Positions 3,001 to 52,650 of a stretch of 58,779 bases of DNA are shown one piece after another (the first letter of the stretch is position 1; each line of letters opens with the position of its first letter). The translations under genes were made by a program, and so were the position numbers. This stretch comes from a virus. The notes beneath the pieces are model-generated. The model saw nothing but the letters and a program-made list of their open reading frames with translations. It had not been told where the DNA came from and searched no databases. The DNA lies in IMG/VR virus record IMGVR_UViG_3300030319_000027, positions 1 through 58,779 of that record; one strand, 5' to 3'.

Positions 3001-3202
3001 CTAACCCAGAAAGCCCGGTGGATGCCTGTTTCAGCGCAGAAATGGAAGCGGACAGCTTATCAAGGCTGTTGACAACCTTCGTCACATTGCCCTTTGTCCG
3101 CAAATTAGAAATGGCGGTAGCGAGCTTGTCGATATTAAGCTCCGCACCGCTGGATTCCGCAGAGATTTCTACGGATAAGCTTGTAATATCAACATCAGCC
3201 AT
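1..3202 (-). CDS. Tail tape measure protein, N-terminal about 1067 codons (continues across the window junction)
   Basis: The minus frame is stop-free from ATG 3200-3202 to the window edge, so it is absent from the ORF track. It is in frame with 58025..58777 through the overlap, since 3202-97 is divisible by 3. It sits directly downstream of the G/T chaperones. Plus ORFs 182..1003 and 2475..3794 are its antisense shadows. Confidence 0.85.
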   Translation of the reverse strand, partial: MADVDITSLSVEISAESSGAELNIDKLATAISNLRTKGNVTKVVNSLDKLSASISALKQASTGLSGLDKLTDFIDKISNANMNESAKGIRAVGNALNRISNVNIGNIDFTGLSSKMESLRKGIAPISSISDSSMKGLRGVSSAINSIAKIPSITKKLDSKTLDDFAEVCKKVASAISPLASKLDKVGRSFSSLPSKIKSAVNSTTRFSSANQKASTSLSSLASQLETIKKRAAQLVSLKAIATYLANAVTKFNDFYEATDLFNNAMGELSGQATELINKMESLLGIDPTEAMTNIATIQSLATSFGLASDKAYILSKNLTQLAYDESSYWNKDTATTFTAIASAISGELEPIRRLGVDLSQARLQQELLALGFNKQVSSLSQADKAVLRYIAIMKQTTNVQGNLAQTISSPANMVRILKSEISQLAKAVGQLLYPAFKAILPVLIAAVDLIKEFVVSLASVFGQKIEFTDFSKTQKDIGGVSDAMDDTADATKAAAKAAKDYTMGFDELNIIDPSQNSGSSGSGGGATGNLLGDVDLSQYDMFKDYAGSAVDEIKEKLKSLNSFQIGTQIGEQMNKLMQMIYDAVHSIDWASLGATVANGINGLVDAVDWDLFGRLLASRFTTEFDLLGGFLGQLDWTSILNAFVNGFSGFFNELTEWIQSKDWSEIGKAVTEKISNALQNVDVGKLTKALFDFIISAINGIADFLSGTDSYQLGQDLVDFSIRAVTSVDWAGLAQAIGRFFGEAFIEALDFMGGLVSRIADYFEEKVAEGPFDNVGLNIIYGIYYGIQDAITNVASWIVENVFNPFINGFKSAFGINSTSTVMAEQGGYIIAGLKKGITDAISSVTEAAKKILSAIRSAFDNFSLFDIGKNLIQGLIDGVNNMIETAKNAVANVGNAAIDKVKNVLGIHSPSTVFAEIGGYIVQGLANGINAAPPYVEQAMTNLANVVQQKGNEMIDYGADVANGFVDNMVNTFDAKWNEIDNGLKNDFIGTIKGMIDAVKKGDIQTVAENTAAIIWKAMGEENRKQVKSYASDLVSNLTSALKTVGSKVFSSAKLVGNNILAGIT

Positions 3203-3620
3203 CACTACCACCATCCTTTTGCTCCATCATAGAGAACATCATTCTCTTGATTCGCTCCTGCGCCTCAACTGCGCGTTGGTATTCATACTCGTCTTTCTCC
3301 TTTTGAGTAAGGGGAAGCGGTCTATCCATGTACTTGATCGGCTTAGACCCTTTCTTTCGGAACATATTGCCAACCGTAGAGGAAAGCGCAGATGCCATGT
3401 AAAAACCGTTTCTCCATGCTTCTGCATTAGCTCTGCGTTCTCGCAGCTCCTCTGCGTCACGGTATACCTTGGCCAGCCAGACATCGCCGTGCCAGAACTG
3501 ATCGTAGGTCATGCCGATGGAGATATAATAGGCTTCTACATCATGGAACAGCTTGGAGAAGGAAAACGGTTCTCCCTCTCCGTCTGGTTCCTGAGATTGT
3601 GCGGTTACACAATCTCCCAC
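3195..3620 (-). CDS. Tail assembly chaperone -1 frameshift extension (gpT-like part of a G-T fusion)
   Basis: It is in the -1 frame relative to 3605..3952. It overlaps the end of that ORF and ends 7 nt inside the tape-measure start. Confidence 0.7.
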   Translation of the reverse strand: MGDCVTAQSQEPDGEGEPFSFSKLFHDVEAYYISIGMTYDQFWHGDVWLAKVYRDAEELRERRANAEAWRNGFYMASALSSTVGNMFRKKGSKPIKYMDRPLPLTQKEKDEYEYQRAVEAQERIKRMMFSMMEQKDGGSDG

Positions 3621-3952
3621 GTTGCGTTTTTTGCGGTCTTGTCCTCAGTATCAGTTGCCAGCAGAGACTTAGAAGCGTCCACAAACATCTCAAGCAGCAC
3701 AGCCATCAGCTCTTCCTTCTCGTCGATGTGGGCAAACATTTCGTCCACGACTTTACGCTTGATGCCACGATTCCGGGCGATAAACGCGCCGTAGAACAGG
3801 GCGCGGGAGTTGGACAGCAGGTTGGTCATCTGGGTGTACTGGCCAATCTGAAAGCCTGCGCGTTCGGTAGCTTCTGCGCTCTCACGGGTGAAAGTCAACT
3901 CGTAAGTGCTCTTGCCGTCGGGGGAATGAAAATTGATAACCTTTGCAGCCAT
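3605..3952 (-). CDS. Tail assembly chaperone (gpG-like)
   Basis: 115-aa ORF between the major tail protein and the tape measure. It ends just after an A_AAA_AAC slippery site. Confidence 0.75.
   Translation of the reverse strand: MAAKVINFHSPDGKSTYELTFTRESAEATERAGFQIGQYTQMTNLLSNSRALFYGAFIARNRGIKRKVVDEMFAHIDEKEELMAVLLEMFVDASKSLLATDTEDKTAKNATWEIV
3626..3632 (-). promoter_or_regulatory. Programmed -1 ribosomal frameshift heptamer A_AAA_AAC
   Basis: Plus strand GTTTTTT. The zero frame reads GCA AAA AAC. Slipping back one nt reads AAA AAA CGC AAC GTG GGA GAT, which is the start of ORF 3195..3620. Confidence 0.7.
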
Positions 3953-4036
3953 AATAAATGTTCTCCTTTATAAATAGGGGCAGAACCAAATCCGTTGTTC
4001 AGTTCTGCCCGGTTTGATTGATTCGATTTTTGCGGT

Positions 4037-4474
4037 TTAGCCGCCGTTGACAGTCAGGGTCTCGCTGAACTCAGGCTTCTTGGTGAAGATGCAGTTGATG
4101 GTCATTTCCACAACCTCGTCCACGCCAAAGCCGGACAAGCCAACCTGATGCATACCCTGCCAAGTAAAGCCGGAGCCGTCCTGCATCTTCAGGGCGTAAT
4201 ACTTCACGGTGTTGCTCTCGGAAGTCTCATCGTAGCCAGCTTCCTTGACCTTCTTGTAGTCAGTCTTGTTGTAGTTGGCGGTAAAAGACTTGGTATCAGA
4301 CTGGATAATGCCAAAGATGTTGACCTGCATGGGGTCAGACAGAGTGGTGGCATCCAGAAGGTTCGGCTCAGAGATCAGGTCGGGTACATCCTTGATGTCG
4401 CACAGCTTCGTCAGAGCGGTTGCGCTGTCGCCACAATATAGGGTGGTATTCAGGCCGGAGATAGCAGTACTCAT
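4037..4474 (-). CDS. Major tail protein
   Basis: 145 aa, immediately upstream of the chaperone pair. Size and position are typical of siphovirus tail tube proteins. Confidence 0.7.
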   Translation of the reverse strand: MSTAISGLNTTLYCGDSATALTKLCDIKDVPDLISEPNLLDATTLSDPMQVNIFGIIQSDTKSFTANYNKTDYKKVKEAGYDETSESNTVKYYALKMQDGSGFTWQGMHQVGLSGFGVDEVVEMTINCIFTKKPEFSETLTVNGG

Positions 4475-20118: not shown

Positions 20119-20823
20119 TTACAGGCGATTGAACTCTGGTTCACAGTACTGTTGCTTCTCTTGCTCTCTGTCAATCCACATATCAGCAAAGGCCTTCCAG
20201 TTTGTTATAGGCTTTCCGGTCTTGGTCATCCAGCCTGTTCCCTCATAGTAGTTCATAAACCTGCTGGCAAGCCTGTTTTCACATCCAGCATCCAAAAAAT
20301 ACTCGCTCACATCCTCGAAGTCCGGCGTGCTGGCGTTCCCATCGGGCGGGTCGCCCGCTTTCTTAATAACTTTTTTTCTTTTCTTTTCTTCTATATTAAG
20401 GAGGTGAACGATTGTTCCCCTCACAGGTGAAGTATCGTTCCCCTCAGAGGTGAATGATTGTTCACCTCCCTTTTCGCTCTTTGAAGATTCTTCCGGCACT
20501 TTGACGTATATCTTATCGGGCTTGTTCTTCCCTTCACGCTTGCGCTCGATCAACCCGGCTTCTTCCAGCTCTTTCAGAGACTTCTTGACCCATCGTTCTG
20601 TGAATCCAGTATCGGCAGCAAGGTCTTTGACGGGATACACGATGTATACTCGCCCTAGTTTGTCAGAAAACTTTCCGCTTCTGCTTGCCCTCTGTGACGA
20701 CCTTGCACGATTGAACAGGTAAATGTAAACAATTTTCTCTGTTGGGCTAACGCCAATAGTCGAGAGGAATCGAGGGTAAACCATGTACCCATTGACCTTT
20801 GTATCGGCTGTCATGTATTCCAT
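20119..20823 (-). CDS. RepA_N-family replication initiator
   Basis: ATG 20823 has RBS AGGAGGAG. The N-terminal winged-helix pattern is YPRFL...EKIVYIYLFNRA...VYIVYPVKDLAADTGFTERWVKKSLKELEEAGLIERKREGKNKPDKIYV. Confidence 0.7.
   Translation of the reverse strand: MEYMTADTKVNGYMVYPRFLSTIGVSPTEKIVYIYLFNRARSSQRASRSGKFSDKLGRVYIVYPVKDLAADTGFTERWVKKSLKELEEAGLIERKREGKNKPDKIYVKVPEESSKSEKGGEQSFTSEGNDTSPVRGTIVHLLNIEEKKRKKVIKKAGDPPDGNASTPDFEDVSEYFLDAGCENRLASRFMNYYEGTGWMTKTGKPITNWKAFADMWIDREQEKQQYCEPEFNRL
20402..20470. repeat. Three tandem 23-bp repeats inside the RepA_N gene
   Basis: AGGTGAACGATTGTTCCCCTCAC / AGGTGAAGTATCGTTCCCCTCAG / AGGTGAATGATTGTTCACCTCCC. Confidence 0.8.
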
Positions 20824-20996: not shown

Positions 20997-22205
20997 TCAA
21001 TCCATCCAAGTATACTCTTGAAACCGTTGAATCTGCTTGTTAAACGTAATGGGAAGGTCGCCTATCTCGCCTTCCTTGTTCTTGCTTAGTCGGAACAGGT
21101 ACTTGTCGGGGTTATCGCCGGACAGAAGGATGATTGCATCTGCGTCCTGTTCAATCTGTCCACTCTCTCGCAAGTCGGAGTTGGTAGGCGTTGCTCTGGG
21201 CTTGGATGGGTTCCGATTGAGCTGTGCCAGCGCCACCACAACAATGCCTGTGGTCTGTGCCAGTTCGTGTAAGGCAATGGATATAGCTGTAATGGCTGCA
21301 TATCTATCCTTTGCGCCTGTTTCGTGGATGAGTTGAAGATAGTCTACGAAGATGACTTGAGCCTTTTTACGGAGAGCCTGAGCCTTTATCCACGCTACGT
21401 TCTTTCCGGCAGCGGAGCGGATATATAGTGGCATCTTCATGTTCTTTGCCTGTCCGTCAATCTCACTCAAGCTAACCGCCTTATTTTTCACCGTGTCCAG
21501 AGGGCAGTATATTTGATTAGCCATCAGACGTGCGCCCAGCTTGCGTTTGCTGGTTTCCAAGCTGAAATAGTACACGATGTAGTCCTGCTTTGCCATGCTT
21601 GCTGCTATTTGCAAGGACAGGGCTGTTTTGCCCGCAGACGGTCTGCCGCCGATGATGATAAAATCACCCAGGGAGATGTGCAGCGCTTCATCCAGACGCT
21701 CTAGGCCTGTCTTGATGTACACAGGCTTTTCGTCCATGTGAAGCACATAGTCGTTCAGTACGTCCTCGTATGTCCACGCATCTTCTTCCTCAGCTTTCAG
21801 GCTCATTGCCTCACCCATCTGCTGGTAGATTTCAGACAAATCCTCATAGGTCGTCAATGCGCTAGCGGATTCAACTGCAAGCGACTGGAAGCGCCTTAAT
21901 GCAGCATTTTCCTTTATCCGCTTAGCCCATTCGCCCATGCGTTCACGGCTAAGTACAACACACTCAGTTTCACACGCTTTGCTGCATTCCACAATCAAAT
22001 CCGCAACGTTCTTGTGCGTTTCTCTGAGGTCTACAACGTCTACATATCCACGAAGCTCCCAATAGCCTTTAATCGCATTGAAAGCCTCTTGTAGCTCTTT
22101 TGTTTCAAAGTCAGAATCATCAACTTCAACCATGACTTCGGCTGCAACATCTCTTTTGCACAGCGTTAGACCGCCGATAAATACCGTTTGAACGTCCATT
22201 ATCAT
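20997..22205 (-). CDS. dnaB: DnaB-family replicative helicase
   Basis: 402 aa with Walker A GGRPSAGKTALSLQIA and the DYLQLI motif. Confidence 0.9.
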   Translation of the reverse strand: MIMDVQTVFIGGLTLCKRDVAAEVMVEVDDSDFETKELQEAFNAIKGYWELRGYVDVVDLRETHKNVADLIVECSKACETECVVLSRERMGEWAKRIKENAALRRFQSLAVESASALTTYEDLSEIYQQMGEAMSLKAEEEDAWTYEDVLNDYVLHMDEKPVYIKTGLERLDEALHISLGDFIIIGGRPSAGKTALSLQIAASMAKQDYIVYYFSLETSKRKLGARLMANQIYCPLDTVKNKAVSLSEIDGQAKNMKMPLYIRSAAGKNVAWIKAQALRKKAQVIFVDYLQLIHETGAKDRYAAITAISIALHELAQTTGIVVVALAQLNRNPSKPRATPTNSDLRESGQIEQDADAIILLSGDNPDKYLFRLSKNKEGEIGDLPITFNKQIQRFQEYTWMD

Positions 22206-37777: not shown

Positions 37778-38090
37778 TTGTCGAATTATCGTTGTTTATG
37801 ATGAACATCTTGTACACCTTTCAACGAATTGATTTCTACTTGTGATGCAAACACTTCTCTTGCTGTGCAAATAAATAACGTTAATACGTTATGTTATCGC
37901 TCACTATAGCAAAATTATATTTTGATTGTCAAAACAAAAACCTATGCACATTGAGTACACCGTTGCGTAAAATTGACTTTCATTTTGATAAAATAAGAAA
38001 AAATTAGAGATTATGGAACTTCTTCTTTTGTTTAGTAGAAGATTATTTAACTCTTGTTTATAATCTTGTTTATATATAATGTAAGAATGG

Positions 38091-38181
38091 GTACGAGATG
38101 TGCATGATGGGGTACGAGATGTGCATAAGCGTGTACGAGATGTGCGTCAAATAAGGGGGTCTAGGTGTACAAGATGTGCAT
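38091..38181 (+). repeat. Four iterons GTAC(G/A)AGATGTGC(A/G)T upstream of the Rep_3 gene
   Basis: Starts at 38091, 38112, 38133 and 38167, giving 21-bp spacing for the first three. An AT-rich stretch at 37780-38090 lies upstream. Confidence 0.8.
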
Positions 38182-38264
38182 GAGCCAATATAAGTGAACA
38201 AAACTATTGACGTGTACACCATTATGTGATAAAATTAGTGTACAGAGAAAGGAGATGTACACTA

Positions 38265-39338
38265 TTGGCAGACCTTTATGAAAATAACTTGATCGAAAAA
38301 AGCAAGGCGCTTGTTTGGGCAGAGTTTAATGATTACACTGTTGGAGAGCTGCGGCTTTTGGAAGTGTATCTTAGCCGTATCAACCCTAGAGATGAAAAAT
38401 CTAGTGAAGTCAAGTTTACCCTTTCGGAATATTGCGATTTGCTTGGACTGCGTGTTAATAGCAGGAACATCGAGAAGCAAATCGAACATTTTCTTGGCAA
38501 CGTTGTGGCGCTTCCTCTTAATGACGATGGAAGCGAGTACAATATGTATACGCTTTTTACGAAAGCAAGCGTTACGATTGATAAGAACTTAGGAATGTAC
38601 GTTGTTACTCTCTGTTGCAACCCTGAATTGAGAAGTGTATTCTTTGATATTGCCAAGAGCGGTTATATCAAGTATAGACTTCGCTACACGGTCAAAATGA
38701 AATCGCAGTATAGCATTTTACTTTATTCGATGCTGCGAGATATGATGAATCGCGGCGGAGACCATTTTGATATTAGCATCAATCGGCTTCGTTCACATCT
38801 CGGCGCAAATGCAGGATGCTATGAAAGTTTCAAGAACTTTAGACGGAGAGTTTTGGATGCAGCGGTTGAAGAAATCAATGATGTGTCCGACATTTATGTT
38901 ACTTACGAAAAAATCTCGTTTGGAAACAAGGCGGTTGCGATTTCTTTTGCCGCTAAGAAAAAAGATGAAAAGCCTGTCGCCGAATTAAAGGCGAAAGAAT
39001 ATAAAGAAGAACTTCCATTCGATGATGACATTCCTGTCGGCAAACCGAATAAAAAGGCTTACAGTGATGTAGATTGGGTGAATATAGCGCCAGACCTTGA
39101 GAAATCAGAGTGCATCGGCATTGCAAGAATGGTTGGGAAAAGAATGGCCGAGAGCTTCCCTACTATTAAGGCTCATAAGAAGAAAGCTGCCGTTGTAAAC
39201 ATTGTGAGTAATGCGTACAATAAAATTTTAAGAGACAAGAAGGAGTGGCCTGATAACCCTGCTGGCTATCTTTACAGAGTTATCGAAAACTCTGACTTAG
39301 ACGAGTTTTCGACTTTTGACGATAGCTTCTTGAAGTAG
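38265..39338 (+). CDS. Rep_3-family (RepB-like) theta-plasmid replication initiator
   Basis: The N-terminus NNLIEKSKALVWAEFNDYTVGELRLLEVYLSRI and overall layout are typical of Rep_3. The probable start is TTG 38265 after AAAGGAGA; the track ORF starts at GTG 38226. Confidence 0.7.
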   Translation: MADLYENNLIEKSKALVWAEFNDYTVGELRLLEVYLSRINPRDEKSSEVKFTLSEYCDLLGLRVNSRNIEKQIEHFLGNVVALPLNDDGSEYNMYTLFTKASVTIDKNLGMYVVTLCCNPELRSVFFDIAKSGYIKYRLRYTVKMKSQYSILLYSMLRDMMNRGGDHFDISINRLRSHLGANAGCYESFKNFRRRVLDAAVEEINDVSDIYVTYEKISFGNKAVAISFAAKKKDEKPVAELKAKEYKEELPFDDDIPVGKPNKKAYSDVDWVNIAPDLEKSECIGIARMVGKRMAESFPTIKAHKKKAAVVNIVSNAYNKILRDKKEWPDNPAGYLYRVIENSDLDEFSTFDDSFLK

Positions 39339-39370: not shown

Positions 39371-40150
39371 ATGGCAAAAATCATAGCTGTTGCCAACCAG
39401 AAGGGCGGCACAGGAAAGACTACAACAAGCACCTGTCTGGCTGGTGCGTTGCAGTTGCTTGGAAAGAAAGTGTTGCTGGTGGACTGCGATGCCCAGTGCA
39501 ACGCAACGGACACCTACGGCGCACAGACAGAGGACGTATGTACCCTGTTCGATGTAATGACCCGGCAGGGTACGGTAGAAGAAGGAATCCAGCACTGCGA
39601 AGCCGGTGACATTCTGCCGTCAGACAACGCATTGAAGGACATTGACGAGCAGCTTGTCCGGGACATTGGTAAGAACTTCCGGCTGCGAGAAGCCCTTGAA
39701 AGCGTGTCTGAGCGGTACGATTACATTGTGCTGGACACTCCCCCGCAGCTTGGCCTTGCGCTTGTGAACGCTCTGATCGCCGCTAACAGCATCATCGTGC
39801 CTATTACGGCAGACCGCTATGCACTTGCCGGATTGAGCCAACTTTCGCAGACCATCGGTGATGTTCGCAGATACTTCAACCCGAACTTGAAGATTGAAGG
39901 TCTGCTTCTGAACCAGTACAAGAGCCGGGAGAACTTGTCCAAAGAGGTCGTGGAGCAGCTTCCTGTGATTGCACAGAGCATGGGGACAACGCTGTTGGAC
40001 GTGAAGATTAGACCGTCTATGGGCGTTCGTAAGGCGCAGGCAGAGCGGCACAGCCTGTTTAGCGGTGATACGGCAAAGAGCACTAGCGCAGAGGATTTCA
40101 AGGCGTTGGCAGAGACGATTGTGGAGGGTGATAAAAATGAGATTGATTGA
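39371..40150 (+). CDS. parA: ParA/Soj-family partition ATPase
   Basis: Deviant Walker A KGGTGKTT. 259 aa with no N-terminal HTH, so type Ib-like. Confidence 0.9.
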   Translation: MAKIIAVANQKGGTGKTTTSTCLAGALQLLGKKVLLVDCDAQCNATDTYGAQTEDVCTLFDVMTRQGTVEEGIQHCEAGDILPSDNALKDIDEQLVRDIGKNFRLREALESVSERYDYIVLDTPPQLGLALVNALIAANSIIVPITADRYALAGLSQLSQTIGDVRRYFNPNLKIEGLLLNQYKSRENLSKEVVEQLPVIAQSMGTTLLDVKIRPSMGVRKAQAERHSLFSGDTAKSTSAEDFKALAETIVEGDKNEID

Positions 40151-40454
40151 TTCTGAAGAACTCGTAAATTACTATTTGCAGAACCAAGCTGACCAAGCAA
40201 GATTTCGCAGTGAAACAGCAAGTGTATGCGATGTTTTAGAAAATGTGATTCGCCATGTAAAATTGATGGATGAAATTCAGCCGAAAGAAACGGCAAAGTG
40301 GGAAGTTCATCATCGAGTGGACGAGGATGGAGAACATTGGAATTGGCTCGAATGCTCAAACTGCCATTATAAAATTGCACGTTATCCGAAAATGTACCGT
40401 GAGACAAGATTTTGCGCTTGTTGCGGAGCAAAGATGGAGGATGAAGAAGAATGA
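40137..40454 (+). CDS. Zinc-finger hypothetical protein
   Basis: ATG 40137 overlaps the end of parA. CSNC ... CACCG motifs. Confidence 0.45.
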   Translation: MRLIDSEELVNYYLQNQADQARFRSETASVCDVLENVIRHVKLMDEIQPKETAKWEVHHRVDEDGEHWNWLECSNCHYKIARYPKMYRETRFCACCGAKMEDEEE

Positions 40455-41023
40455 AGTCAACCAGCAAAAAAACATCTGGCTTGTTGGGCGGATTTGACTT
40501 CCAGCCTGTTTTTTCGGAACATACATTAAGCCGAAGTGAGCCAAAGGAAGAAGAAGTAAGCCAAGCAAAGCCGAATAATGCCGAACAAGCACAGATTAAG
40601 CCTAGTGATGCCACAGACAGCCGTGTACAGCCGAGTGAAGCAGAATTAGGCGGTATTAAGCCAAAGCAAGCCAAAGACGGCGAAAGACAGCCAAGTGGTG
40701 CCGTGTTAGGCGAAGGTAAGCCAAAGAAGCTGAAACAGGCAAAAGAAGTGCAGCGTTTGATTGAACAGGGCGATGTACCCGGCGCACTGGCTGAAGCTGG
40801 ACTGACAAAGAAAAAAATCCCGATGCCGGAATCGCATCAGGGCGTTGCAAGCGGTGATGGCAAGCGTTCGAAGCGCATTACCATCCTTATGAGCGAGGAA
40901 GAGCGCAAGTACATCAACCGTGAAGCAAGACGGCACGGAATGACGATTGGACAGTTTGTGTACGCTCTGGCTGCTGCTTCGGCAGACGGGAAGATTGAGT
41001 TGGAGGATTTCTTGGAGGATTGA
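40451..41023 (+). CDS. Ribbon-helix-helix protein with a low-complexity N-terminal half (candidate centromere-binding ParG/omega analogue)
   Basis: C-terminal KRSKRITILMSEEERKYINREARRHGMTIGQFV fits an RHH fold pattern. The start overlaps the preceding stop. Confidence 0.55.
   Translation: MKSTSKKTSGLLGGFDFQPVFSEHTLSRSEPKEEEVSQAKPNNAEQAQIKPSDATDSRVQPSEAELGGIKPKQAKDGERQPSGAVLGEGKPKKLKQAKEVQRLIEQGDVPGALAEAGLTKKKIPMPESHQGVASGDGKRSKRITILMSEEERKYINREARRHGMTIGQFVYALAAASADGKIELEDFLED
40527..40726 (+). repeat. Array of 20 consecutive 10-bp registers carrying a phased GCC motif
   Basis: 14 of 20 decamers have GCC at offset 4-6 and 4 more have GC(A/G). Recurrent units are TAAGCC(A/G)AAG and ACAGCC(G/A). 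Confidence 0.8.
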
Positions 41024-41076: not shown

Positions 41077-41105
41077 TTGACTTTTAAGCACACAAATAGT
41101 ATACT
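41077..41105 (+). promoter_or_regulatory. Sigma70-like promoter
   Basis: TTGACT, 17 nt, TATACT. Confidence 0.55.
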
Positions 41106-41135
41106 TAATGTGCGCTCAAAAGTGGAGGTGAACGC

Positions 41136-41309
41136 ATGAGTGCAAAAATGGGAAGACCAAAGCTGGAAAACCCGAACAGTGTTCGCACAAGTGTCCGTTT
41201 GGACGTGAATACTGACAAACAGCTTTCGGATTATTGCGAAAAAAACGGCATTTCTAAGGGAGAAGCCGTTCGTAAAGCTGTCCAGCAATGGCTTGAACAT
41301 CAAAAATAA
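41136..41309 (+). CDS. 57-aa CopG/RHH-type protein
   Basis: Not in the track. RBS GGAGGTG precedes the start. MGRPKLENPNSVRTSVRLD...GISKGEAVRKAV fits an RHH pattern. Confidence 0.55.
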   Translation: MSAKMGRPKLENPNSVRTSVRLDVNTDKQLSDYCEKNGISKGEAVRKAVQQWLEHQK

Positions 41310-41443: not shown

Positions 41444-42298
41444 ATGAACATTCCAGCAACGAAAGAAGAGATTCTCGAAAACTTCAAGAAAAACAGCAAC
41501 GGCCGTACGCTCAACAAGGATGATTATGAGATTGCAGAAGCATTATCTCGAATCACTTACAAGGCGTATGAAATCGGCATGGAAGATGCAAAACAGTTAA
41601 ATATGGAGGATATGATGGATAGCAAGAGATGTAACGCACTTCACGTTTTTAAGAACAAGACCTTTGGTCAGCTTCGCACGATTGAAGAGGATGAAAAGAT
41701 TCTTTTCTGTGCTTCTGACGTGGCAAAGGCATTGGGGTACAGCAATCCGAGGGATGCAATTTCCCGCCATTGCAGGGGTGTCGTGAAACGCGACACCCTT
41801 ACGCAGGGAGGAATCCAAGCAATCGCTTTTATCCCAGAGGGCGATGTTTACCGTCTTATCACCCACAGCAAGTTGCCCGGCGCAGAGAAGTTTGAGAGTT
41901 GGGTGTTTGATGACGTTCTTCCGTCTCTTCGAAAGGATGGCTATTACGGCCTTGCTCCGCAGGAGAACAAGCCTGACACACAGAACGATGCAATTTTGCA
42001 AGTGCTGATGAAGAACACGGAAGTCCTGCAAGCCATCGTTCAACAAAACCAGCAGATTATGATTGCTCTTACTAACCTGTCCGTCAACGATGCAAAGCGC
42101 ACGATGGAGATTCAGCCTTATACTTCCCATCAGGGGCAGAAGGGTGACGGAAAACGTAGCAAGCGGATCACAATCCTTATGAGCGACAGCGAGCGGACGT
42201 TTGTTACAAGAGAAGCACGAAAGCACGGATTCACGGCAGGGGAGTACATTTACAACCTGTCCGTTGCAGCATCGAAAGACCAAATTGACTTAGGCTGA
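41444..42298 (+). CDS. BRO-N domain protein fused to a C-terminal RHH module
   Basis: BRO-N motif FGQLRTIEEDEKILFCASDVAKALGYSNPRDAISRHC...GDVYRLITHSKLPGAEKFESWVFDDVLPSLRKDGYY. The C-terminus KRSKRITILMSDSERTFVTREARKHGFTAGEYIY is paralogous to the end of 40451..41023. Confidence 0.7.
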   Translation: MNIPATKEEILENFKKNSNGRTLNKDDYEIAEALSRITYKAYEIGMEDAKQLNMEDMMDSKRCNALHVFKNKTFGQLRTIEEDEKILFCASDVAKALGYSNPRDAISRHCRGVVKRDTLTQGGIQAIAFIPEGDVYRLITHSKLPGAEKFESWVFDDVLPSLRKDGYYGLAPQENKPDTQNDAILQVLMKNTEVLQAIVQQNQQIMIALTNLSVNDAKRTMEIQPYTSHQGQKGDGKRSKRITILMSDSERTFVTREARKHGFTAGEYIYNLSVAASKDQIDLG

Positions 42299-49475: not shown

Positions 49476-51938
49476 TTATGTGTTGGTCATTGATGCCACA
49501 GCATCCTCAAGGTCAGTGATGCGCTTGATGGGGTCTGCTCTGCCGGTCACCGTCACGCTGTCCGCGTCGGTCAGCAGGGTGTTTACACCGGGCAGAGCAG
49601 GGATAGGCTGCGCTCCTGTGGCAGTGAAGGGTTCAGGCTCTTTCAGCGACTGATACACAATCTGCACAGGCGTTCCTGCGGCATATTGTGCAGCACAATA
49701 ATCATTCAGCTCATCTACACTTGAGAACAAGTTCTGCAAACGGTTTGGCTGCGTGAAAAAGAACGCATATGGTTCATTTACTGAAAATTTAGAGGAAATG
49801 AAATGGCTGCATATAATTTTAGATGCGCTAGTTGCACCATCTGCTGTGTGGTACGGCAAATTCCAAAATCTATCATTACCATAAGATGAGAATTTGATTT
49901 TTTTAGCATCAATGGTTGCTATTTTCCACGTCTCCTTCCCATCACCCGTCACAGCATCCACCGTGCCGCCGTAGATGGTGCTCGGTAGGGTCAGGATGGC
50001 GGTTTGGCCGGTGTAGGGGGTGTATTCGGTGGGCGAGGTGGAGCCGGGTACAAGTGCAAAGTTTTTTAAATCAGCCGATGTTTCCTTCGCAGAGAGGCCA
50101 CCAGTAAGGCCCACCTGGAAATAAGCCGCGCCCTGTACCGTAAATGTTATCACCTTGTGCGTACCGGACGGATTGTACGGATACAGTAATGTAGCCTTAT
50201 AGTAGGTATTGTGGATTGTATCATACCCTTCCATTCTGGGCAGAATAGATACATCCACCATATTGCCGCTGGCATCATAGCCGCGCAGAAGAAAGCGCCC
50301 ATGTGCTGCTGTATCAGCATCAATCTGAATAGTGTACGTTCCTGCGGGGTATTTTCTTGCAAGCAAAATATAACTAGCGCCCCAGCCAGATGTATCTACC
50401 ACGTGGATGGTGCTGTCATCTACCGTGCAGTCTTTGTTCTCGGCAACGCGGGACACATCCAGCAGATTCTCCCCGCACCGCTCGGCCGTCACGCTGTCAC
50501 GTCCTTTGATGGGGCGAATGTTTTCGTAGGGTGCATAGGCGGTAGCAGTCGTGCCTTTCTCTATCTGCGGTTTTGCCGAAGCATTATCCAGTGTGCCAGA
50601 TGCGGCAAAAAACAAGGTGGCTTTTTGTATGTCACTCTCTACTGTAAACGTACATGGCTGTCCAATAATTTGCGCGGCAATCGTAGGAGCATCATCTGCA
50701 TCCCTATTGAGAATTGATATACGAAAATGCGACATTGCGCTAATCGTGTATGTACCAGCAGGAAGCGAAAAATAATCAGAGTTGTAGTATGAAGCCCCAT
50801 TTGCCGTTCCAGTTGCTGTTACAGTGCCATCGGGGGCTATTGTCCACGTTAATCCATTGTTCAAGGTTCTTTCTGGCATCCATGCGGGATTAAACAGATT
50901 TTTCCCTCCACCCGCCGGATACGGCGTTCCCTCGCCCTCCTGCGTCGGTTTCCAGCTCACCTTACAGCCCAGCGGATATTTCGCCACCGGGTAGCACACA
51001 GCAGGGTTGCCGCTTTCTTCCAGCGGCGGGCAGAGCACGTCCACGATGTGCTTGCTGCTCCAGGCGTCGGTGCCGACTGTGGTGTCATCTATGACTGCTT
51101 TGGTCGCCAGCGCGTCACCTGTCACTTTAGCGTCAGCTGCCTGCCCGCTCTGGCTCAGGGTGGCATCCACGGTGGCGTCTTTGCCGGGTGCTCCGTCCTT
51201 GCCGTCCGCGCCAGCAGGGCCCGCCTCGCCGGTGTCACCCTTCTCGCCCTGCGGCCCCTGTGGGCCGGTTTCTCCGGGGTCACCTTTGGGGCCTTGAGGG
51301 CCGGGCAAACCTTGTGCGCCCTGTGGCCCTTCGGGGCCGACCGGGCCGGTAGCTCCCGGCTCGCCCTTAAAATCTCCGCTGGCAATGCCGTCATTGAGCT
51401 CCTGCAAGCTCTCGGCGGCCTTTTTCTGTGCGTCACCGGCAGCTTTCTCGCTGGCAGCGGCCTTTTCGGCAGATGCCCCGGCCTGCTGTGCTGCCGTCTG
51501 TGCATCGGACTTGGCCTGCTCTGCGGCGGTGGCATCGGTGTGCACGGCATCCACCAGCTCCTGCCAGGCGGGTGTGCCGGGCTCCGGCATGCTGCCGTTC
51601 TCCGTGCCGGAGTTGGCAGCCACACGGTAGCGCAGATCTGCGCTGGTCACCGTGCGGGTGCCGTCACTGCCCTCAAAGGTGACGCACCCGCTGCCGGGCT
51701 GTGCGGTCACGCTGGCGGGCACGTCCACATAGCCGTCCACCACCAGCGAGGATGCCGGGTCTTTGCCGTCCGGGACGTGCCAGAAGCAACGGATAGCCAG
51801 CCCTTTCCACTCGCCGGAAGCGGTGACTGCAAGGCGGTACACGCCCCGGTTTTTGGTGTAGCCAAAGCGCACCAGCTGCTCATAGCCCGGCACTTTGACG
51901 ACGCCATTGGATGCGAGAGATACGCTTAGCTCGATCAT
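49476..51938 (-). CDS. Tail fibre with a collagen-like triple-helix segment
   Basis: 820 aa. Uninterrupted Gly-X-Y repeats span aa 192-253 (nt 51180-51365). Confidence 0.8.
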
Positions 51939-52277: not shown

Positions 52278-52650
52278 GATTTGTTACTCCTTTCAGTAGG
52301 TAGTTGTTGATATCGGATTTGCTTTTTTGCATACCTTCGCGGTTATTGCCGGATAGTTGCGCATCCAGAAGATTCTGCACGCCAACAAGGACAAGACGCA
52401 TTTCTTCATCGATGCCGTCAAAGCGCGTCAAATCGCGTCTAAGGGCCGCGGCGTGCTGCGTGGAAACAGTTTCTACCGCAGCCAGTCGCTTTTCAATGGT
52501 GTCAATGCGCTTGTTCTGCGCATCGTCGGGGGCCTGTGCATTTTTGACGTACTTGTGGATGATGTCCAGCACCTTGTCGATGGTGATGACCGCAGCGCAC
52601 AGGCTGCCCAAGATGCCCAGCACCCACAGTAGAGCTTCTTTTTCGGTCAT
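52261..52650 (-). CDS. Membrane-anchored coiled-coil lysis accessory protein
   Basis: N-terminal TM segment. It lies between the endolysin and the holin. Confidence 0.45.
   Translation of the reverse strand: MTEKEALLWVLGILGSLCAAVITIDKVLDIIHKYVKNAQAPDDAQNKRIDTIEKRLAAVETVSTQHAAALRRDLTRFDGIDEEMRLVLVGVQNLLDAQLSGNNREGMQKSKSDINNYLLKGVTNHGSNA

Follow-up and report, generated by a model that had tools for sequence, protein, structure and literature searches.

The ParF–ParG–parH system of plasmid TP228 combines a small Walker-type ParA ATPase with a ribbon–helix–helix (RHH) protein whose flexible N-terminal tail acts on the ATPase, and the gene for the ATPase precedes that for the RHH protein. Its centromere, parH, is an array of about 100 base pairs (bp) of short degenerate boxes (PMC3130281). 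The δ–ω–parS system of pSM19035 is likewise built from an RHH protein on short repeats and a ParA-type ATPase. Here, ω coats contiguous short direct or inverted repeats and activates the ATPase via its N-terminal tail (PMC9499535, PMC4627068). Type Ib centromeres are normally sought in intergenic DNA, and annotation pipelines or searches confined to intergenic regions would miss an array placed in a coding sequence. The present work concerns such an array. It lies in 58,779 nucleotides of viral DNA (IMG/VR record IMGVR_UViG_3300030319_000027; this whole stretch is called the window), inside the gene of a 190-amino-acid (aa) protein with a predicted RHH domain and close to a parA gene. The array is probably an intragenic centromere of a type Ib-like ParA/RHH partition system, encoded in the disordered tether of its own putative binding protein.

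By analogy, the system of the window would work like TP228 ParFG/parH and pSM19035 δ/ω, but it differs from both in the place and the make-up of the repeats. In TP228, parH is located upstream of the operon in non-coding DNA and consists of tetramer boxes with AT-rich spacers, and ParG has 76 aa, whereas the window has an intragenic array of 10-bp units and a tether that is about 70 aa longer. In pSM19035, ω is a protein of 71 aa, and its 7-bp heptads are extragenic, lie in promoter regions and serve as operators for several promoters. Among these systems, the type II ParR–parC of pSK41 and R1 comes nearest to the proposed geometry of one dimer per helical turn; its ParR is said to occupy tandem direct repeats with one RHH dimer per ~10–11 bp and to form a continuous superhelical segrosome. 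There, however, the motor is the actin-like ParM, and parC is non-coding and upstream of the operon. The ATPase encoded next to the RHH gene of the window is a Walker ParA, and only the geometry of an RHH protein on phased repeats is shared with type II.

The preliminary description of this DNA had called a centromere embedded in the gene of its binding protein unusual. It is unusual, but precedents exist. B. subtilis reportedly has a parS site within spo0J. In SCP2, a summit in chromatin immunoprecipitation sequencing and an 18-bp inverted repeat fall inside parT, and the site was removed by synonymous recoding (PMC12260392). In both cases the gene of the binding protein itself contains the centromere, as proposed here, but these are single palindromic sites of 16–18 bp, which are bound by helix-turn-helix ParB-type proteins and lie in sequence coding for structured domains; the array of the window is a phased series of many units that fills 200 bp of linker-coding DNA and passes through all three frames. 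The closest logical parallel is offered by RepA_N replicons (pSK41, pAD1), in which a cis site is also written into a linker: the Rep boxes lie centrally in rep, in the part that encodes a variable linker, which joins two conserved domains and is dispensable (PMC5703833). Those boxes differ in serving replication initiation, in having a winged-helix reader and in numbering about four, and frame-independent 10-bp phasing is not described for them. Full-text literature searches returned no description of an intragenic phased RHH array of the present kind. Compared with these known systems, two things are new: a multi-unit, helically phased, putative RHH array of 200 bp fills a linker-coding region in all three frames, and this arrangement is kept across lineages while the motif and its presumed reader change together.

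The phased decamer array and the constraint upon it

The array runs through 20 decamers in strict 10-bp register, with the consensus [T/A]-A-A-G-C-C-R-A-A-[G/T] and the core MAGCSRAR (coordinates are collected in Table 1). Cutting it into decamers reproduced exactly the unit counts of the preliminary description: 14 units carry GCC at positions 4–6, four carry GCA or GCG (40637, 40647, 40677 and 40707), and two, GAAGAAGAAG at 40547 and AAGCACAGAT at 40587, lack the motif. All 14 GCC triplets at 40530–40720 share one register, and none stands off-register between 40530 and 40722. The position weight matrix of the units gives 0.94 for G4, 0.89 for C5, 0.83 for A3 and 0.76 for A8. In the 190-aa protein the array encodes residues 26–92, which corrects an earlier placement. 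The motif is read in mixed codon phases, as had been claimed, and all three occur: seven GCC are in phase 2 (xxG-CCx), four in phase 0 (Ala GCC) and three in phase 1 (AGC-Cxx). The phase-2 units encode K/Q/E-P every 10 aa.

A periodicity scan of the whole window, covering all 64 trinucleotides and periods of 7–14, gave its top score at the array, with 13 of 13 GCC in phase within 200 bp. The runner-up was a period-9 signal of GCC/CCT/CCC at 51000–51440 on the minus strand, within the open reading frame (ORF) 49476–51938, and corresponds to the collagen-like Gly-X-Y repeat of a tail-fibre protein. Tandem Repeats Finder reports only 1.9 copies for the array because the units are degenerate outside the core. 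Elsewhere in the window, the sequence TAAGCCRAAG with at most one mismatch has nine matches against 7.3 expected and is neither enriched nor clustered. An operator made of motif copies outside the array was thereby ruled out.

The constraint, as far as sequence analysis can tell, acts on the nucleotide sequence, and the peptide is not its target. Three independent tests agree on this point, which the preliminary description had already put forward: synonymous resampling, population variation, with selection at synonymous sites of the decamer core, and the signs that the region is nevertheless translated. The comparison with distant relatives, whose linker peptides cannot be aligned, points the same way. 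When the order of the codons in the linker was shuffled, no more than five GCC fell in register in 20,000 trials, compared with the 14 observed. Synonymous resampling kept the peptide and redrew the codons according to the codon usage of the window (20,000 draws). It yielded 6.1 ± 1.8 in-register GCC and a period-10 power of 2.0 ± 0.6, and the observed values of 14 and 6.07 were reached in 0/20,000 draws each. The periodicity is real, and it is the strongest such signal of the window.

IMG/VR holds 509 related loci, of which 80 were fetched (87–93% protein identity); 62 unique ungapped gene variants were analysed. Gaps placed by BLAST in 15 IMG/VR variants were alignment artefacts, as all 15 are ungapped genes of 573 nt. 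The permutation tests applied to this set treat sites as exchangeable and ignore kinship. Within the array, nucleotide diversity (π) shows an effect of decamer position (p<5e-5) and a weak effect of codon position (p=0.02). In control stretches from elsewhere in this gene, diversity follows the normal third-position pattern, and an effect of decamer position is slight or absent (p=0.41 and 0.04). By decamer position, π is 0.02–0.04 at positions 2, 4, 5 and 8 and about 0.2 at positions 7 and 9. At third codon sites it amounts to 0.063 at core decamer positions, 0.204 at the other third sites of the array and 0.235 in the rest of the gene. Nei–Gojobori estimates point the same way: synonymous divergence (pS) is lowered in the array (0.19 versus 0.31–0.36 in the flanks), and nonsynonymous divergence (pN) is raised (0.075 versus 0.014–0.05). 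Units with the consensus core have a core π of 0–0.05, except for two with 0.08 and 0.12, and the GCA/GCG or off-register units have 0.10–0.15. Units with GCC keep it in 84–100% of the 62 variants.

None of the 62 unique variants has a disrupted ORF for the 190-aa protein, and the first 25 codons and the RHH domain are under strong purifying selection in the same frame. At decamer positions 1–3, TAA, TAG or TGA is present in eight of the 14 out-of-frame units and in none of the six in-frame units (Fisher p=0.04). A non-coding array followed by a downstream start codon was ruled out by the coding-type substitution in the N-terminal 25 codons, the 62 intact ORFs and this avoidance of stop codons in the translated frame only.

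The array-bearing protein and its relatives

An RHH fold is assigned to the C-terminus of the 190-aa protein with moderate confidence. The NikA-like RHH model of Pfam matches residues 138–174 (E=2e-5; 25.1 bits, with the cut-off at 27). AlphaFold2 predicts disorder for residues 20–89 (predicted local distance difference test, pLDDT, <50) and helices at 92–105, 109–115, 149–161 and 166–178; the two C-terminal helices (pLDDT 84–93) are preceded by an alternating strand motif. The 12 best Foldseek matches are all RHH proteins (CopG, Arc, KacA, AtaR, TacA, CdbA), and NikA and ParG are in the top 20. Their TM scores to the target are 0.46–0.84, with E about 1 because the RHH domain is tiny. With phmmer, no match to PDB sequences was obtained at E<=10, and neither the ParG nor the ω family appeared in the Pfam scan of the window proteins at E<=0.01. 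By sequence, the protein belongs to neither family.

Two short parts of the protein are candidates for contacts with its partners. The N-terminal peptide, in which M1, K2, S5, K7 and G10 are invariant among relatives of 32–93% identity, has a pN/pS of 0.17 and is proposed to be a ParA-contacting and ATPase-stimulating tail. The β-strand K141-R-I-T-I-L-M147 is predicted to read the DNA; R142 and M147 are invariant, and the residues that do vary change together with the repeat motif.

The protein belongs to a narrow family, which comprises 20 clusters in a set of 1.84 billion representatives. The N-terminal peptide and the C-terminal RHH domain are common to all members, and their linkers cannot be aligned. 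PLSDB plasmids contain no homolog of the 190-aa protein, and GTDB representative genomes contain no close relative of either ParA or the RHH protein; beyond these blanks, two unannotated human-faecal phage records were the sole matches.

In relatives at 30–50% identity the linker peptides are unrelated, and most of these genes carry a 10-bp-phased array in the same part. The main family, represented by the window, combines the strand KRITILM with 20 units of [T/A]AAGCCRAAG at 10 bp. A second group (P0137/42/46/47/48; L109, L101, L110, L102 and L111) has the strand PRITIIM or RVTVIM and the motif TACAGCGRAA, arranged in two blocks that are each in strict 10-bp register. Its motif has the core MAGCSRAR in common with the window array and, read in three frames, gives the peptides NTAK, YSE and IQP. 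P0137 was not found in IMG/VR, and seven divergent proteins offered no conserved stretch on which an alignment-based search for their loci could build. In P0132/P0141 (L104, L108), the strand RMAIAM accompanies 12 units of RWAGTCAGWG at 10 bp; in P0135 (L103), RVSVAM accompanies RGCAGAAT, which keeps one 10-bp register and recurs every 2–4 turns; in P0126 (L083–L087), RVSVPM accompanies 13 units of GCARAWT at 9 bp; and in P0245 (L112), RMCVAM accompanies GGAAGY at 10 bp. P0206 (L105; strand RMNIAM), a 102-aa protein with a short linker, has no intragenic array.

Similar strands occur with similar motifs in two pairs of lineages, and different strands occur with different motifs. The repeat motif thus appears to track the RHH recognition strand across lineages, as an association. 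Among periods of 7–14, the best trinucleotide period is 10 in most linkers of the relatives and 9 in L083; a period of 10 is not favoured by coding sequence. A proposed check was whether homologs preserve the 10-bp phase despite amino-acid changes, and most relatives do so, with the motif in all three frames; the lineage with 9-bp units and the array-less lineage with a short linker are exceptions. Generic four-base spectral power in segments of 120 bp fails to tell such arrays in distant relatives apart from noise, whereas the trinucleotide register statistic does. Synonymous resampling gave p-values of 0.0007 (L103), 0.004 (L104), 0.009 (L083), 0.08 (L102) and 0.21 (L101).

The array-less lineage L105 was found on a Logan contig (SRR21527946). 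It has a 19-bp repeat, GTAKCAAGAAGTATTATGT, at 3113–3131 upstream of parA and again at 4389–4407 downstream of the RHH gene, possibly the layout of a conventional extragenic centromere. Four AAGT at 10-bp spacing were also noticed downstream by eye.

A change of array and reader can be followed in L083–L087. Here the main family is represented by the phage backbone, ParA and the N-terminal peptide, and the RVSVPM/9-bp type by the linker array and the RHH domain; in L083 the N-terminal peptide is unchanged despite the swap of linker and RHH. In L083 (IMGVR_UViG_3300045988_082988, 3594–4218), the new RHH gene is followed by a Zn-ribbon ORF and then by a truncated RHH gene of the main type. The latter encodes 106 aa, is devoid of the N-terminal peptide and has five to six remnant AAGCC/CAGCC decamers ahead of it. 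Truncated gene and leftover decamers look like the fossil of a replaced centromere cassette. Since a new array and a new RHH domain stand on the old backbone, array and reader were exchanged together and the ParA interface kept, the pattern expected for a changed centromere specificity. Such a co-swapped cassette suggests how related phage-plasmids of one gut community may diversify their partition specificity and escape incompatibility.

Length variation within the main family follows the repeat as well. The 206 full-length proteins have 150 aa (2 proteins), 160 aa (2), 170 aa (26), 180 aa (26) or 190 aa (145), so that 201 of them differ from 190 aa by multiples of 10 aa. An indel of 30 bp is the smallest that preserves both the frame and the 10-bp register, which accounts for the series of 150, 160, 170, 180 and 190 aa and implies arrays of 8 to 20 units. 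This length quantum shows that reading frame and helical phase constrain the gene jointly, each independently of the other.

Partition and the competing explanations

The array is read as a centromere because the gap of 32 bp between rep and parA leaves no intergenic room for one, the motif is clustered nowhere else, and RHH proteins coat phased repeats. Set beside known centromeres, which are composed of short repeats near the operon, it presents 20 phased decamers under nucleotide-level selection in an atypical, intragenic location. Specific binding is suggested, indirectly, by the co-variation of motif and β-strand and by the joint exchange of array and RHH domain in L083. The preliminary description had proposed a candidate centromere for the nearby RHH protein, and this proposal therefore stands: relatives have phased arrays, the motif tracks the strand, and the iterons are elsewhere. 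The description of the ATPase as type Ib-like holds too. The predicted protein of 259 aa has no N-terminal helix-turn-helix extension, matches AAA_31 over residues 2–175 (E=2.8e-54) and CbiA (E=1.3e-24), and reaches E=3e-30 against ParA_partition of NCBIfam, under the equivalog cut-off. In one respect the earlier picture has to be amended. The RHH gene had been placed directly downstream of parA, but a 105-aa ORF intervenes in the window; adjacency holds in most relatives, and the RHH gene directly follows or overlaps parA in eight of them.

As a partition site, the array would function as follows. At each AGCC-RAA core, a dimer of the 190-aa protein would place its RHH β-sheet (KRITILM) in the major groove. 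Given the 10-bp spacing, successive dimers would come to lie on roughly one face of the helix, and up to 20 dimers could coat ~200 bp cooperatively. Each bound subunit would display the N-terminal peptide MKSTSKKTSGLLGGFDF on a flexible tether of ~70 residues, where it would contact nucleoid-bound ParA-ATP and stimulate the ATPase, resulting in a ratchet-type partition of the prophage-plasmid. The tether would have almost no amino-acid requirement, so that the DNA would be free to act as a binding array. This would be a case of natural dual coding made cheap by protein disorder, in which a tether that tolerates any sequence frees the DNA for a second function. Auto-repression by a roadblock or preferential loading in cis may arise as a side effect, which is speculative. 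We infer binding of the RHH protein to the array, the engagement of ParA and plasmid stabilisation from these patterns, and the hypothesis can be tested directly by synonymous recoding.

The array might be a genuine protein-binding site with a primary role other than partition, such as a roadblock or operator for the RHH protein, a target through which the Bro-N–RHH protein influences lysis–lysogeny, or a site for packaging or recombination. Nucleotide-level selection is silent on which of these functions is selected. Type Ib centromere-binding proteins are usually repressors too, and ParG and ω double in this way; moreover, the gene around the array is transcribed, and a coated array could stop elongation, and the Bro-N protein has the identical β-strand KRITILM. 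A classical operator is nevertheless not indicated, since the one good promoter-like site of the operon is 2.3 kilobases (kb) upstream of the array. The terminase genes are ~28 kb away. The array co-occurs with ParA in every lineage, whereas several loci have no Bro-N gene. The strands of partner and Bro-N differ in L104 (RMAIAM versus RISIPM), so their identity is not a rule of the family, and the idea that the Bro-N strand co-varies with that of the partner fails there. L083 exchanged its array and RHH domain but retained the ParA-facing peptide. A primary role outside partition is thus unlikely, and the Bro-N protein is a possible second reader of the array that could link partition to the lysis–lysogeny circuit.

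Explanations that dispense with a centromere or relocate the constraint fare worse. The linker is predicted to be disordered, its peptide evolves fast and its length varies in 30-bp steps, all of which would suit a functionless, low-complexity by-product of slippage in units of 10 or 30 bp. Such an origin is highly improbable as a full account, because purifying selection in the 62 variants is specific to positions of the decamer core, synonymous sites included, the codons used depart widely from those expected for the peptide, lineages whose peptides are unrelated and whose motifs differ have phased arrays in the corresponding position, and a peptide repeat has no reason to adopt a period of 3.33 codons. 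Selection at the DNA level and at the RNA level on the coding strand look alike in conservation tests, which could equally betray a constraint on the mRNA through its structure, ribosome pausing or the binding of a regulator. However, the predicted RNA fold has a z-score of only -1.13, with 24 of 200 shuffled sequences folding as well, and the array has no Rfam match; on these two results an RNA element was rejected. With a 10-nt period that equals the helical repeat of B-DNA and has no known rationale in RNA, and with a motif that tracks a DNA-binding β-strand, a constraint on the mRNA is very hard to credit. The array also shares an operon with rep, and its phased A-rich segments (RAAG) could add curvature, as might be expected of an accessory element of the Rep3 replicon in the form of extra iterons, bent DNA or a host-factor site. 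Yet the Rep3 iterons, located upstream of rep and accompanied by inverted copies, consist of a different repeat of 21 bp, the best-conserved positions of the array are G4, C5, A2/A3 and A8 and not an A-tract, and the motif varies with the RHH strand and not with Rep. A part in replication is accordingly most improbable.

Several observations weigh against the centromere reading, the similarity of DNA- and RNA-level selection mentioned above among them. Five of the 206 main-family proteins depart from the length series with 173 or 191–193 aa. In the TACAGCG lineage, the two blocks are offset by 4–6 bp, so that the register holds strictly inside each block but does not always carry over from one block to the next, and synonymous resampling over the full range is non-significant for L101 and L102; the weak p-values follow from this block offset. 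The association of motif and strand derives from about six lineages, is confounded by phylogeny and involves lineages that are not independent. The RHH assignment depends on a Pfam match below the cut-off and on Foldseek E-values of about 1. Finally, the Bro-N paralog, sharing the β-strand, could be the relevant reader of the array.

The centromere reading can be extended to a model for the whole phage-plasmid family, although we put this forward tentatively, at somewhat less than even chances. The family would encode its centromere and the tether of its binding protein in the same 80–200 bp. Array and RHH domain would evolve and be exchanged as one specificity cassette that sets incompatibility, while ParA and its peptide would stay fixed, and translation on top of the protein's own site would favour loading in cis and roadblock feedback. 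Beyond this family, DNA-binding proteins in general may have cis sites concealed in the DNA that codes for their linkers.

Genome context, neighbouring genes and further repeats

The 58.8-kb window has the genes of a tailed phage, including those for a portal protein, a large terminase, a major head protein, a tail fibre and a DnaB-like helicase. It also contains a plasmid module consisting of the Rep3 initiator, ParA, a Cys-rich ORF and the array-bearing RHH gene; these four genes are all on the plus strand, with ends that overlap or nearly abut. The element appears to be a gut phage-plasmid of roughly 58 kb. It is abundant, as the 509 related loci in IMG/VR and 831 protein clusters attest, and would be an accessible model given a host.

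Table 1. Positions of the array, the rep operon and associated features in the window.
Feature	Coordinates	Strand	Remarks
Rep3 iterons	38088..38185	+	four copies of GTACGAGATGTGCAT, 21-bp spacing; inverted copies at 37801-37819 and 37943-37961
Promoter-like site	38207-38235	+	ahead of the rep operon
rep	38226..39338	+	Rep3-family replication initiator; Pfam Rep3_N E=3e-21, Rep3_C E=7e-15; first gene of the rep-parA-orf-RHH operon
parA	39371..40150	+	Walker-type ATPase
105-aa ORF	40137..40454	+	two Cys-x-x-Cys pairs, Zn-ribbon-like; overlaps parA at its end and the RHH gene at its start
RHH gene	40451..41023	+	proposed centromere-binding protein; conserved N-terminal peptide, array-coded disordered linker, short helical segment, C-terminal RHH
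N-terminal peptide	40451..40513	+	MKSTSKKTSGLLGGFDFQPVF; proposed ParA-contacting tail
Decamer array	40527..40726	+	proposed intragenic centromere
RHH β-strand codons	40871..40891	+	predicted DNA-reading strand
Bro-N protein gene	41444..42298	+	antirepressor-like; C-terminal RHH almost the same as in the 190-aa protein

Iterons are direct repeats of ~17–22 bp beside rep, spaced about two helical turns apart. The GTACGAGATGTGCAT repeats have these properties and the 10-bp array does not; as this separate 21-bp set lies upstream of rep, the array is not the replication iteron set, and a role as Rep iterons was ruled out.

The 105-aa ORF had no family match in the Pfam and NCBIfam scans. Most relatives have no such ORF, or a different one, between parA and the RHH gene. 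In L104, an unrelated protein of 138 aa is encoded at this position (2038–2454) and has only the first residues (MRLID.E) in common with the ORF of the window; in L083, a different Zn-ribbon ORF (3594–3827) is placed after the RHH gene. The 105-aa ORF is for this reason probably an accessory gene. An antisense ORF of 285 aa with a TTG start (39817–40674, minus strand) extends across the small ORF, taking in the 3' half of parA on one side and the beginning of the array on the other, and was treated as spurious.

Between the RHH gene and the Bro-N gene, a 57-aa CopG-type RHH protein is encoded at 41136–41309 on the plus strand. A promoter-like sequence, TTGACT-17-TATACT, is located just upstream at 41077–41105 and is overlapped by a 26-nt palindrome at 41080–41123. 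This protein is probably a self-regulated small repressor that is separate from the array.

Two further repeats were noted at a distance from the plasmid module. A 23-bp tandem repeat, AGGTGAACGATTGTTCCCCTCAC, is present in 2.9 copies at 20402–20468, about 500 bp from the gene of the DnaB-like helicase (20997–22205, minus strand), and is a candidate for a second, lytic origin or a protein-binding site. In the tail-gene region, a short 10-bp tandem repeat, CGTCAAAGCG, occurs in 2.8 copies at 52416–52443.

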